Shown here: positions 51,901 to 57,864 of the stretch, one piece after another | Layout: each line of letters begins with the position of its first letter | How positions within the stretch are numbered: position 1 is the first letter of the stretch | Source of the DNA: Candidatus Thorarchaeota archaeon | GTDB taxonomy: Archaea > Asgardarchaeota > Thorarchaeia > Thorarchaeales > Thorarchaeaceae | Assembly: GCA_048884965.1 (NCBI GenBank) | Contig: JBHLQH010000015.1 | Location: 19,337-83,336, forward strand | Direction of reading: 5' to 3' | DNA length: 64,000 nt | Translations under genes and position numbers: made by a program | The notes under the pieces: generated by a model | Databases searched by the model: none | Seen by the model: only the letters and a program-made list of their open reading frames with translations | Told to the model about the DNA's origin: nothing

Positions 51901-52017
51901 TGGTGCGGAGGGCGAGATTCGAACTCGCGATTCGGCCAGAACTGGGAATCAGTCCATGTACACCTACGTGATAGGGATCTGAACCCTACGCCTTTGACCT
52001 GGCTTGGCAACCTCCGC
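51901..52017 (-). tRNA. trnL: tRNA-Leu(CAG) with 29-nt intron (51931-51959) and encoded CCA
   Basis: Acceptor GCGGAGG/CCTCCGC-A-CCA; anticodon arm TAGGG-TTCAGAT-CCCTA; variable arm CAC-GTAG-GTG; T arm GCGAG-TTCGAAT-CTCGC; TATA-like TTTAATATA upstream. Confidence 0.95.
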
Positions 52018-54840: not shown

Positions 54841-55128
54841 TCATTCCTCTTTTCGAGAGGTATACCTGAAGAAGATGTACGCAATCACTAGTATCAGGAC
54901 GATACCAATCCCACCAGTTATTGCATCAACCAAGGGTCCTTCACCAAGGAATGCGAACAATCCTTCATAGCCGCTTTCTGGCTCAGAAATTCCAGCCCAT
55001 TCGAATAGAGCCCATTCAAATCCATCTGGATTCTCTGAAGCTAGACCAGAAAGAATCAGGACGGTTGTGATTGCAACTAGGATGATGATAGTTGGTAGAA
55101 CTACCTTGAATAGCGTGTCGCGGTTCAA
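54841..55128 (-). CDS. PDGLE-domain protein (NikN-like)
   Basis: ASENPDGFE between two TM helices. Confidence 0.85.
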   Translation of the reverse strand: MNRDTLFKVVLPTIIILVAITTVLILSGLASENPDGFEWALFEWAGISEPESGYEGLFAFLGEGPLVDAITGGIGIVLILVIAYIFFRYTSRKEE

Positions 55129-55826
55129 GTGGTCGCCTCCTCAACAAGGACTGTCTTGGTCTCTCGTTTCAGAGCTTTTCCAGTATCGCTATCCTTCAAG
55201 AATGAAACAAGACTCGGCTTTGCACGAACAAAGTATAGGAGGATGACAAAGGTTAGTATCGCCTCTCCAACAGCGATGATTCCATGAATTCCAGTGATGA
55301 TTATCACAAAGTCAAAGCTGAGACCGGGAATCGTGAGAAGTTCCATTCCTAGGACAAAAGCTGATGCAATAATAACTGCAAATGCTGCAATTGGTGTAGC
55401 AATCAGAACAGCAGTCTTTTCGTTTCGTATTCGCTTCAATCCCTTGAAAAGAAGAAGGGATATGCTCCAACCTAGGACAGCTCCAAGAATGCCCATATTG
55501 AAGAAGTTCAATCCAAAAGCCAAGAGACCTCCGTCTGCATATAGAGCTTGTACAAACAGGACTAGTGCCATAATGACCATTGCAGCCCATGGCCCTAGCA
55601 TGACTGCAAGCAAGGTCGTTCCAACGAGATGACCACTTGCAGGAGGAACTGGAAAGTTCACCAGCTGGGCTGCAAAGATCACAGCCGCGAGCACACCCAT
55701 GTATGGAGTGAGTCGTTCATTGAATCGCTTGTTCACTCTCTGAACTGCATACCCCAAGATGGGGATGCTAATTACAAGGAAGAGAACATACATCCAGAAT
55801 GGAAGAACACCATCGGGAACATGCAT
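55125..55826 (-). CDS. nikM: ECF S component NikM/CbiM
   Basis: N-terminal MHVPDG, SGHLVG, QAL..DGG..G.N. Confidence 0.9.
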   Translation of the reverse strand: MHVPDGVLPFWMYVLFLVISIPILGYAVQRVNKRFNERLTPYMGVLAAVIFAAQLVNFPVPPASGHLVGTTLLAVMLGPWAAMVIMALVLFVQALYADGGLLAFGLNFFNMGILGAVLGWSISLLLFKGLKRIRNEKTAVLIATPIAAFAVIIASAFVLGMELLTIPGLSFDFVIIITGIHGIIAVGEAILTFVILLYFVRAKPSLVSFLKDSDTGKALKRETKTVLVEEATT

Positions 55827-55873: not shown

Positions 55874-55922
55874 GTGTTACTTCTTGTGAAATCGTGTTAC
55901 TATTCAAGGTAAGATGTGTTAC
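55874..55922. promoter_or_regulatory. Three GTGTTAC direct repeats in the nikM-nikR intergenic region
   Basis: GTGTTAC at 55874, 55894 and 55916. Confidence 0.55.
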
Positions 55923-56375
55923 CAACAATTGGTGAGATGCAAAATGAGTTTGAAACGATTTGGTGTTTCGATTCCAGAGGACCTCTTGGCTCAGTTCGAT
56001 GAGATTGTTGAGAAGAAAGGATACGTGGGAAGATCAGAAGCAATCAGAGATGCTATGCGTCTATTCATATCCAAATACCAGTGGCAAATGGATATCTCAA
56101 CAGGATTTGCTAGCTTGAATATCGTCTTTCAACACAAACCACGTCTTATGGCGGATCTCTTGAAGAGTCAACATGATGCAGAAGCGGAAGTCATTTCGAC
56201 TCTGCATACTCACATTACCAAGACACATTGTTTTGAGATATTGACAATGAAAGGTACAGCACAAGGTATCAAGAGACTAGCAGACAAGATTAGCGGCTTG
56301 TCAGGTATTGAGTTTGCTGAATTGTTCACATTTGCCCTTCCTGAACTAAGTGGTGGTCATCCGCACACGCACTAA
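55914..56375 (+). CDS. nikR: Nickel-responsive regulator NikR (likely ATG at 55943)
   Basis: RFGVSI..LL..FD..GY..RSEAIRDA RHH domain; QH..HTH...HC metal ligands. Confidence 0.93.
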   Translation: MCYQQLVRCKMSLKRFGVSIPEDLLAQFDEIVEKKGYVGRSEAIRDAMRLFISKYQWQMDISTGFASLNIVFQHKPRLMADLLKSQHDAEAEVISTLHTHITKTHCFEILTMKGTAQGIKRLADKISGLSGIEFAELFTFALPELSGGHPHTH

Positions 56376-57082
56376 GAGATTCGATTCTTCAGGAAGAACC
56401 CCACCAGTACAACTATGATGATAGATGATGAGAATGCAAGGATTACCAAGGGAGTGTAGTCAACGCATTCTTGACAGGGTACGTCTATGAATTGAAAGTC
56501 TTGTAGTACGCCATCCGTATCGATCATTAGAGTCCAACGTTCAGTTTCGCCTACAAGATAGAATTCAAAGAGCCAAATGGCATCAATATCAAGTCCAACA
56601 TGAGAACCTGGTACAAGCAGAATCTCTTCGCAGAGACCCCAGTAATGTCCATCGTCAGCAAAGAAGTCGGTTGCAGTCCTTACCGCCAGAGAATAGTTCG
56701 CAGAAATGGTCGAGGCAATAATATCAAGCCATTCCACTTCAAGTGTTTCAGAGTTCAAAGCAACGATGGTCTGATAGAATCCTGTACTGTTGAGCTGGAC
56801 AATAGCATAGCTTGCTAGAGAAACGTTGAACATCAGGGATGCATCATAAGAACCGATCTCTTCCCAAAAGAGCGTGTCATTTTCCTGTAGAAGTGAGATT
56901 AGCAGATCATCTGTTCGGAATGCCTCAACACTCTCACTAAGTATAGAGAAATCCTCAGGGACGAGTTGCAGCTCTCTATAGTCTACAGTCACCACGGGAT
57001 AGGGTTGAGCTTGGGTAGGAAGTATAGGAACCAATAGAAGTACAAGTAATAGTCCAAGTCCCATTGTTCTCATGTTCATCAA
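56372..57082 (-). CDS. Secreted membrane-anchored hypothetical protein
   Basis: Signal peptide, CxxC before the C-terminal TM. Confidence 0.75.
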   Translation of the reverse strand: MMNMRTMGLGLLLVLLLVPILPTQAQPYPVVTVDYRELQLVPEDFSILSESVEAFRTDDLLISLLQENDTLFWEEIGSYDASLMFNVSLASYAIVQLNSTGFYQTIVALNSETLEVEWLDIIASTISANYSLAVRTATDFFADDGHYWGLCEEILLVPGSHVGLDIDAIWLFEFYLVGETERWTLMIDTDGVLQDFQFIDVPCQECVDYTPLVILAFSSSIIIVVLVGFFLKNRIS

Positions 57083-57130
57083 TTGGAGAGAAGAAAATCA
57101 GAGATAAAACCGTGTTGTAATAGGCTATTA

Positions 57131-57410
57131 CCATGGGGGCAAGAGAATAAAGTGGCAGGTCCGGGCCAATAAAGGGGCAGATGCGTCAGATTATCCATCC
57201 CCAGATGGAGTTCCTGACACCGATATGCCGTGCGAGGCTAATGGAGGATTATGGAGTTGATTGAGTCATGAGGTTCTGAGAGTTTCTATCAACACCTTCC
57301 CCCTTGTGTGGAACCGAGATAGTAAGGAGGAACCGGGGAGTTAGTAACCTTAAGCACCCCAGCACCATCAGGGAATGATGCTCTGGCCCGTACCGCCTGA
57401 ACCACATGGC
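57131..57410 (-). ncRNA. Candidate multi-stem non-coding RNA of about 255 nt (unknown family)
   Basis: Closing stem GGCGGT-A-CGGGCC / GGCCCG-G-ACC-T-GCC plus GTGG/CCAC; six internal hairpins; three G-U pairs all favour the - strand; TATA-like TATAATAT near 57438-57445. Confidence 0.65.
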
Positions 57411-57600
57411 TCTTACAACTAGTGTCATCTAAGTAGTATATTATATTATCCAACTCAGCGATGAGGAATTCGTACCCAATCCGAGGGGATTTTCATCTAA
57501 ATCCGAACCATGTGGTTCAGATTTCGTTGATGGCGCGAAAATTCGAATCGTTTTGCTCAGAAAGGTTGGCTCTTAGTAAACCTGAGAATATGAATCTTGA

Positions 57601-57864
57601 ATGAAAATGGAACTAGAGGAATCGAGTGAATCATCTCCTCGAAGGCGAGTGAATATTTGGTGGATCGCTTTGACAGTTGTATCAACAGCATCAACAGCCT
57701 ATATCATGTCAGTGTTTGGATGGATCCCGGTGAATCCAGTCTATGCTGTGATTATGGGTTCAGTCTTCGGGATTCTCTTCGTGATTTACCAATTCTTCTA
57801 TTACAGGGAGATTGCGAAGCGAATCGAACCTGAAGCACCTAAGCGAGATGGCGAACTGTTCTAG
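57601..57864 (+). CDS. Small 2-TM membrane protein
   Basis: Two hydrophobic helices, 87 aa. Confidence 0.7.
   Translation: MKMELEESSESSPRRRVNIWWIALTVVSTASTAYIMSVFGWIPVNPVYAVIMGSVFGILFVIYQFFYYREIAKRIEPEAPKRDGELF

Follow-up and report, generated by a model that had tools for sequence, protein, structure and literature searches.

To our knowledge the repertoire of non-coding RNAs in Asgard archaea, the closest known prokaryotic relatives of the eukaryotes, is almost unexplored, and a search of the literature turned up no catalogue of small RNAs for the Thorarchaeota. In shape, the nearest known likeness of the RNA gene described here is the archaeal SRP (7S) RNA (RF01857). Both RNAs are of comparable size (~300 nt for SRP RNA, ~265 nt for our element), and both have paired 5′ and 3′ ends, a long interrupted rod, a small 5′-proximal hairpin and, at the apex, a branched domain with conserved sequence. 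The likeness is restricted to the shape: SRP RNA is universal and encoded once per genome, whereas our element was found in only 2 of the 86 genomes of its family and, as an earlier note on this DNA had already remarked, does not have the motifs of SRP helix 8. By every test of SRP membership it falls outside that family. Archaeal RNase P RNA (RF00373) is also a multi-helix RNA of similar size which is closed by a terminal stem, and the stretch GGGGAAGGU of the element is faintly reminiscent of the CR-I motif. The element differs from it in its narrow distribution and in not being matched by the covariance model.

Archaea also possess small RNAs that stand alone and have a promoter each, such as sRNA154 and sRNA162 of Methanosarcina mazei. 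Like RNAs of this type our element is intergenic, apparently transcribed independently, lineage-restricted and endowed with conserved exposed segments, but it is two to three times longer and rod-shaped, and a search gave no conserved complementary target for its best conserved block. Finally, the orphan structured ncRNA motifs of the Weinberg/Breaker type share with it a conserved fold that has no Rfam family, although our element does not extend beyond a small clade. In general terms we count it among the structured ncRNAs that are orphans and restricted to a lineage.

The window, by which we mean the whole stretch of 64,000 nucleotides that was analysed, is part of the genome of a Candidatus Thorarchaeota archaeon (assembly GCA_048884965.1, contig JBHLQH010000015.1; here G000). 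The element is situated on the minus strand of the window at 57145-57412, is ~265 nt long (266 nt in the contig comparison) and lies in a 517-nt gap between the divergent gene P0002 and the co-directional gene P0001. A second copy was found in a genome of the same genus (G001, see below). The features of the locus are as follows:

57601-57864, plus strand: P0002, the divergent neighbour, encoding an 87-aa membrane protein
57452-57461, minus strand: invariant 10-nt block TCGCTGAGTT, identical in G000 and G001
57438-57443, minus strand: TAATAT box, which probably serves the RNA gene as TATA element, identical and similarly spaced in G000 and G001
57145-57412, minus strand: RNA gene, from the conserved 5′ block GAGCCAUG.GGU.CAGGCGG to just beyond the 3′ strand of P1
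57399-57412, minus strand: 5′ mini-hairpin H0 (GAGCC/GGUUC) within conserved block A, predicted in both MFE folds
57384-57397, minus strand: 5′ strand of the terminal stem P1, pairing with 57154-57168
57361-57382, minus strand: side hairpin P2 (AGCAUCAUU/GAUGGUGCU); G001 has a hairpin of unrelated sequence (GACC/GGUC) at the equal place
57306-57360, minus strand: 5′ arm of the rod P3-P6, pairing with 57174-57220 in the MFE fold
57215-57303, minus strand: conserved apical core, free of indels between the two species (alignment A4)
57174-57220, minus strand: 3′ arm of the rod P3-P6 (MFE fold)
57154-57168, minus strand: 3′ strand of the terminal stem P1 (MFE fold)
57141-57151, minus strand: U-rich tract UUUAUUCUCUU directly after P1, read from the sequence
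57103-57117, minus strand: BRE/TATA-like promoter of P0001, CAACA..GTTTTATC, outside the RNA
56372-57079, minus strand: P0001, the downstream neighbour, encoding a protein of 234 aa with a signal peptide and a C-terminal membrane anchor

Adjoining P0001, the genes nikR (55914-56375, plus strand) and cbiM (55125-55826, minus strand) are arranged head to head.

The earlier note had placed the RNA at 57131-57410, near the best boundaries (~57145-57412) with the exact ends shifted, and had described a GC-rich island without a long open reading frame. Both parts of this description are borne out: the G+C content is 52% in the element compared to 39-40% in the intergenic flanks and 44% in the window, and the longest open reading frames across the element comprise only 59 and 54 aa. 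The covariance models R1 and R2 match the RNA gene over its full length, R1 has only this one match within the window, and according to BLAST, covariance model and motif search the element is single-copy in G000. We consider it rather probable that this stretch is a genuine stand-alone gene for a structured non-coding RNA, which is read from the minus strand and has its own TATA box.

Known RNA families do not account for the element. When all 4227 models of Rfam 15 were searched at the relaxed threshold of E ≤ 10 on the copies of G000 and G001, no meaningful match was obtained in either copy, but only a chance match to a lncRNA model with 12 bits. With the gathering scores the element was likewise unmatched, and the sole match in the whole window was an intron-bearing tRNA 5 kb away. 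This tRNA (51904-52017, minus strand, 49 bits) is interrupted by ~40 inserted nt that separate its anticodon arm from its T arm; an intron at this position is non-canonical. Within the element itself nothing tRNA-like was detected with ARAGORN and the Rfam tRNA model.

It had also been considered that the element could be a highly diverged housekeeping RNA. This suggestion has to be abandoned, as the true SRP and RNase P RNAs of G000 are encoded on other contigs and the element is limited to the two family genomes mentioned above. The archaeal SRP RNA was found in full length on contig C50 (84.5 bits, E 3e-19) and the RNase P RNA at C16:41010-41342 (157 bits). It follows that the element is no diverged form of one of these two RNAs; nor does it match RF01857 or RF00373 at E ≤ 10. 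As an aside, the SRP RNA gene (L001, G000:C50:11887-12197, minus strand) scores below the Rfam gathering score of 96.5 bits and would thus be missed by standard annotation. BLAST searches of the element against collections of phages and plasmids gave no match either. An RNA of a MITE or of another mobile element is ruled out by the single copy and by the lack of phage and plasmid relatives.

In a BLAST search of 40 relatives only one weak match was detected, namely in G001, with 73% identity over 85 nt. This match is syntenic: it is located between the orthologs of P0002 and P0001, the homologous stretch being 1395-1658 of locus L004. The copies of the two genomes share exact blocks of 8-20 nt, between which the sequence is close to random; the proteins encoded on either side are only 49-56% identical. 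The following blocks are identical in G000 and G001:

GAGCCATG.GGT.CAGGCGG, at the 5′ end
GGGGAA.G.GTTGATAGAA
CATGACTCA
GCCTCGCACGGCAT..CGGTG
GATA.TC

Over the ~90 nt from GGGGAA to CGGTG the alignment A4 contains no indels at all.

The whole-RNA covariance model R1 recovers the element from G000 and G001 and from no other of the 86 genomes of the family; in particular it is not found at E ≤ 10 in the other five genomes of the same genus. The core model R3 scores 111-113 bits on these two copies and gives nothing credible elsewhere, neither in 41 relatives nor in 151 genomes of the phylum. Weak model matches in G011, inside an ORF of 367 aa, and in G202, where the hairpin P9 is missing, are at chance level. 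A pattern scan with the conserved blocks returned only G001 among the genome contigs, and among the metagenome contigs one chance match in a GC-rich bacterial contig. A third copy is visible only indirectly. Six Logan/ENA contigs encode a predicted protein of 50 aa, P0041, which is 88% identical to a spurious ORF of 87 aa across the element of G001. Of the earlier proposal of an Asgard ncRNA class, the ncRNA is upheld, whereas a class of Asgard rank is too broad for an RNA seen in two or three species. It appears that the RNA gene is young and limited to one small clade of a Thorarchaeota genus.

The helices that the earlier note had listed are all present on the minus strand where it had drawn them: the terminal stem, AGCATCAT/ATGGTGCT, GGGG/CCCC, TTCCTCCTT/AAGGGGGAA, GTTGAT/ATCAAC, GCC/GGC and GTGTCAG..TCCATC/GATGGA..CTGACGC. 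The comparison of the two species retains only a part of them. The terminal stem, the AGCATCAT hairpin and the apical core are common to both species, whereas the local helices GGGG/CCCC and TTCCTCCTT/AAGGGGGAA as well as the 3′ hairpin are available in G000 but not kept in G001 and are replaced by long-range pairs of the rod in the common fold. This fold is a long rod from which a single hairpin branches off to the side and whose apex is formed by the conserved core. From the 5′ end it comprises the mini-hairpin H0, the terminal stem P1, the side hairpin P2, the rod P3-P6, in which nt 53-107 pair with nt 193-239, and the apical core P7-P9. The helices P1b, P2, P3, P4 and P6 are found at equal places in both species with differing sequences. 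The terminal stem of G001, for instance, is formed by largely different sequence (GGCGGAG/CUCCGCC, CAU/AUG, CCA/UGG), and the rod helices of G001 occupy the matching alignment columns, again with differing sequences.

In the apical core the conserved blocks read GGGGAA.G.GUUGAUAGAA, CAUGACUCA and GCCUCGCACGGCAU..CGGUG on the RNA strand, and the helix P7 would be formed by GGGGA/UCCYC. In addition, a hairpin of block D, GCACGG-CAUR-YCgGUGY, is possible in both species, and its stem changes only from G-C to G-U. Where the amino acids of P0039 and P0041 differ, the underlying nucleotide changes between G001 and its close relative can be deduced, eight in all; three of these are in loops, three turn a Watson-Crick pair into G-U and two would break pairs. 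At the 3′ end of the RNA there is a tandem direct repeat of 18 nt (57146-57163 and 57168-57185, 83% identical), whose copies read CUGCC(C/A)CUUUAUU on the RNA strand. Both are base-paired, one of them in P1 and the other in P3.

Taken alone, the predicted fold of G000 is borderline better than chance and is suggestive rather than decisive: the z-score is −2.0 on the minus strand, where 6 of 200 shuffled sequences equal it, and −0.28 on the plus strand. The sequence of G001 even folds better on the opposite strand (z −2.68) than on the RNA strand (z −1.84), and one G001 helix of 11 bp is better on the opposite strand, where a U-G pair stands in place of a C-A mismatch on the RNA strand. RNAalifold, applied to a MAFFT alignment with column shuffling, gave an equal result for both strands which is not significant (z −1.5, SCI 0.33), because the MAFFT alignment between the conserved blocks is off by a few columns. 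A refit of the model that was built on the G000 fold reproduced only the same columns.

Stronger than this single-sequence evidence is the comparison of independently predicted folds, which is based on the two full sequences. On the minus strand 64 of the 82 pairs of the G000 MFE fold have a counterpart in the MFE fold of G001 within three alignment columns, and 37 have one within one column. When the unconserved segments of G001 were shuffled with the conserved blocks held fixed (n = 300), the mean number of shared pairs was 4.5 and the maximum 31, so that none of the 300 reached 64. The opposite strand, with equal sequence identity, has only five shared pairs. The tree edit distance, which does not depend on an alignment, points in the same direction: it is 142 for the minus strand compared to 223 ± 25 for shuffled sequences (1 of 200 and 0 of 200 as low), and 202 for the opposite strand (43 of 200 as low). 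G-U pairs number nine and five in the two folds. Thus, for these two full sequences the modelled architecture is shown to be conserved on the minus strand only.

Upstream of the RNA the earlier note had seen a TATA-like box. We could identify it as TAATAT, placed 25 nt (G000) or 26 nt (G001) before the conserved 5′ block; its role as promoter is deduced from the geometry of archaeal promoters. A further 8 nt upstream lies the invariant block TCGCTGAGTT, which may be the binding site of a regulator. In a regulon search the combination of TCGCTGAGTT and a TATA box was not found elsewhere in the G000 genome. At the other end the U-rich tract UUUAUUCUCUU is the probable stop of transcription in G000, whereas in G001 no run of U follows the terminal stem until the TTTT of the TATA box of the next gene.

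Two further repeats were observed around the promoter. A 16-nt inverted repeat, 94% complementary and spaced by 92 nt (57397-57412 and 57505-57520), joins the conserved 5′ block of the RNA to the near-palindromic GAACCACATGGTTC upstream of the TATA box of the RNA, and G001 has a looser direct repeat of its own 5′ block ~80 nt upstream. Such repeats may serve as sites for a regulator on either side of the RNA promoter.

With regard to expression, we compared four public runs over 6 kb: three DNA runs of sediment from one study, which carry the organism, and one soil metatranscriptome from another study. The metatranscriptome contains only two mismatch-free contigs in these 6 kb. One of them, 217 nt long and 100% identical, is wholly inside the element (57169-57385) and the other is in cbiM (55180-55396). 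By our own arithmetic a random piece of 217 nt would fall wholly inside the 266-nt element in ~1% of the placements. This is a hint of a comparatively abundant RNA, given by a contig that carries neither strand nor end information and may stem from DNA carry-over. A break at 57169 is common to the Logan contigs of two different studies, and those of two sediment runs end at 57414, just upstream of the 5′ end of the RNA, with one of them resuming at 57416. A minor variant contig differs at five positions within 57465-57498, and no variant was seen inside the RNA; the strain diversity of the Logan contigs is therefore in the promoter region and not in the RNA.

In conclusion, the blank Rfam search of both copies, the architecture on one strand, the conserved promoter of its own, the lack of a conserved ORF and the hint of expression together support the claim of the earlier note that the locus encodes an undescribed ncRNA. 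Other explanations of the same observations have nevertheless to be weighed.

The element could act in cis on P0001, be it as a long structured leader or a riboswitch-like sensor, or by transcriptional interference, with an upstream transcript reaching and occluding the promoter of P0001. It shares the strand of P0001 and stops ~35-45 nt before the TATA box of this gene, and in G001 this TATA box is itself the first run of T after the RNA. Just past P0001 lie the genes for NikR and CbiM, which belong to nickel and cobalt uptake, and the terminal stem of G000 followed by the U-tract resembles an expression platform of the terminator type. However, neither the cobalamin riboswitch (RF00174) nor NiCo (RF02683) nor any other riboswitch model matches one of the two copies at E ≤ 10, and promoter occlusion does not require a conserved rod of 265 nt. 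Moreover, P0001 has its own promoter: the motif CAACA..GTTTTATC is located 25-40 nt before the start codon and is kept in the orthologs across the genus whatever lies upstream, including G003, G005 and G006, where a DUF4332 gene replaces the RNA. In two other genera (G044, G014) the TTTTATC box alone precedes the P0001 orthologs. Of the 23 other P0001 orthologs examined, 22 lack the RNA on their upstream side, and where it is missing the upstream regions contain differing protein genes and none of the motifs of the element. Likewise, P0002 keeps its proximal palindromic AAATTCGAATTT-like motif in G005. As both neighbours keep their own proximal promoters where the RNA is absent, the element looks like an independent transcription unit rather than a leader, and we regard an action in cis as unlikely.

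The gene upstream of the P0001 orthologs varies by genus and encodes a DUF4332 protein, membrane proteins, a phosphatase-like protein or others; P0001 is a conserved gene in a rearrangement hot spot (loci L006-L009, L019, L020, L029 and L030). In G003 and G005 the gap between P0002 and P0001 is occupied by a gene for a DUF4332/HhH protein, which in the RNA-bearing genomes is found elsewhere (L052, G000:C56:109-882, and L053, G001:C581:93-860), in each case ~100 nt from the start of the contig and beside a common neighbour with 83% identity. Since G000 and G001 share a gene order that is absent in G003 and G005, the distribution agrees with the RNA having arisen once, in a small clade. The same circumstances could also be taken to mean that the element is a functionless transcribed relic, for example, of an old insertion or of a decayed gene fragment, and that the two copies resemble each other by shared ancestry only. 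The very narrow distribution, the location in a hot spot with a wandering DUF4332 gene and the fact that neither a function nor a target was found would all suit such a relic. Yet neutral DNA should be saturated with changes between genomes whose neighbouring proteins are only ~50-56% identical, while 14+5, 6+10 and 9 nt have stayed identical as blocks and no indel has entered the core; a congruence of folds on one strand is not expected from shared ancestry alone. A tblastn search with the genes found upstream of P0001 in other genomes detected nothing in the element, so that a relic of these genes is rejected, and the single copy speaks against a MITE. A relic appears quite unlikely to us.

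It is very unlikely that the conservation is due to a DNA-level element, that is, to regulator sites or inverted repeats in the divergent promoter region between P0002 and P0001. Inverted repeats are indeed present, including the one of 16 nt which pairs the 5′ block of the RNA with a site 92 nt upstream, and the short invariant blocks could be operators. A symmetry of the DNA should, however, let both strands fold alike, whereas only the minus strand yields the shared architecture and makes use of the G-U pairs counted above. Furthermore, both flanking genes have proximal promoters of their own, and the contig from the RNA library falls on the element.

A small protein gene, intact as the 87-aa ORF in G001 and decayed to a pseudogene in G000, is highly improbable: although in both genomes a single open frame runs through the equally spaced blocks B, C and D (GE.VDR, MT.S, LARH.G) and there is an ATG at a distance of 6 nt from where the transcript presumably starts, the ORF shrinks from 87 aa in G001 to 50 aa in the 88%-identical relative, G000 has an in-frame stop and requires a different frame at the 5′ end, the substitutions show no third-position bias and are mostly non-synonymous beside the blocks, and protein libraries of 5.8 and 1.8 billion sequences hold no relatives except P0041, the G000 ORF not being on record. 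As the ORFs across the element end differently in each copy, the element is, judged by its reading frames, non-coding.

For the stand-alone RNA gene we suggest the following mode of action. A minus-strand RNA of ~265 nt would be transcribed from its own TATA box, and its two ends would pair, so that the body forms a long interrupted rod (P1, P3-P6) with the side hairpin P2. This rod would carry the apical core of ~90 nt with the sequence blocks that are identical in the two species; the rod may serve to stabilise the RNA and to present the invariant core as the working part. Most likely the core would be a platform for protein binding, either in a small RNP or in a regulator that titrates a protein. 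We hold an antisense action to be less likely, as the searches gave no complementary target that is conserved, and would take protein binding to be roughly twice as probable. For block D the search for antisense targets gave two sites of 14 bp with G-U pairs in G000. Chance alone would give about as many, and G001 keeps neither of them. A bolder proposal, which we hold to be rather doubtful, is that we are dealing with an RNP RNA of recent birth and specific to its clade, whose SRP-like rod with the invariant apical core recruits a dedicated protein and which arose at a site that the DUF4332 gene occupies in sister species. If true, it would be a rare datable case of the de novo origin of a large structured RNA.

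The element is neither a universal nor a eukaryote-like housekeeping RNA, and its weight is modest. It is one more uncatalogued structured RNA of the Asgard archaea, an unusually large one, and, being so narrowly distributed, it may exemplify a structured RNA gene of young age.
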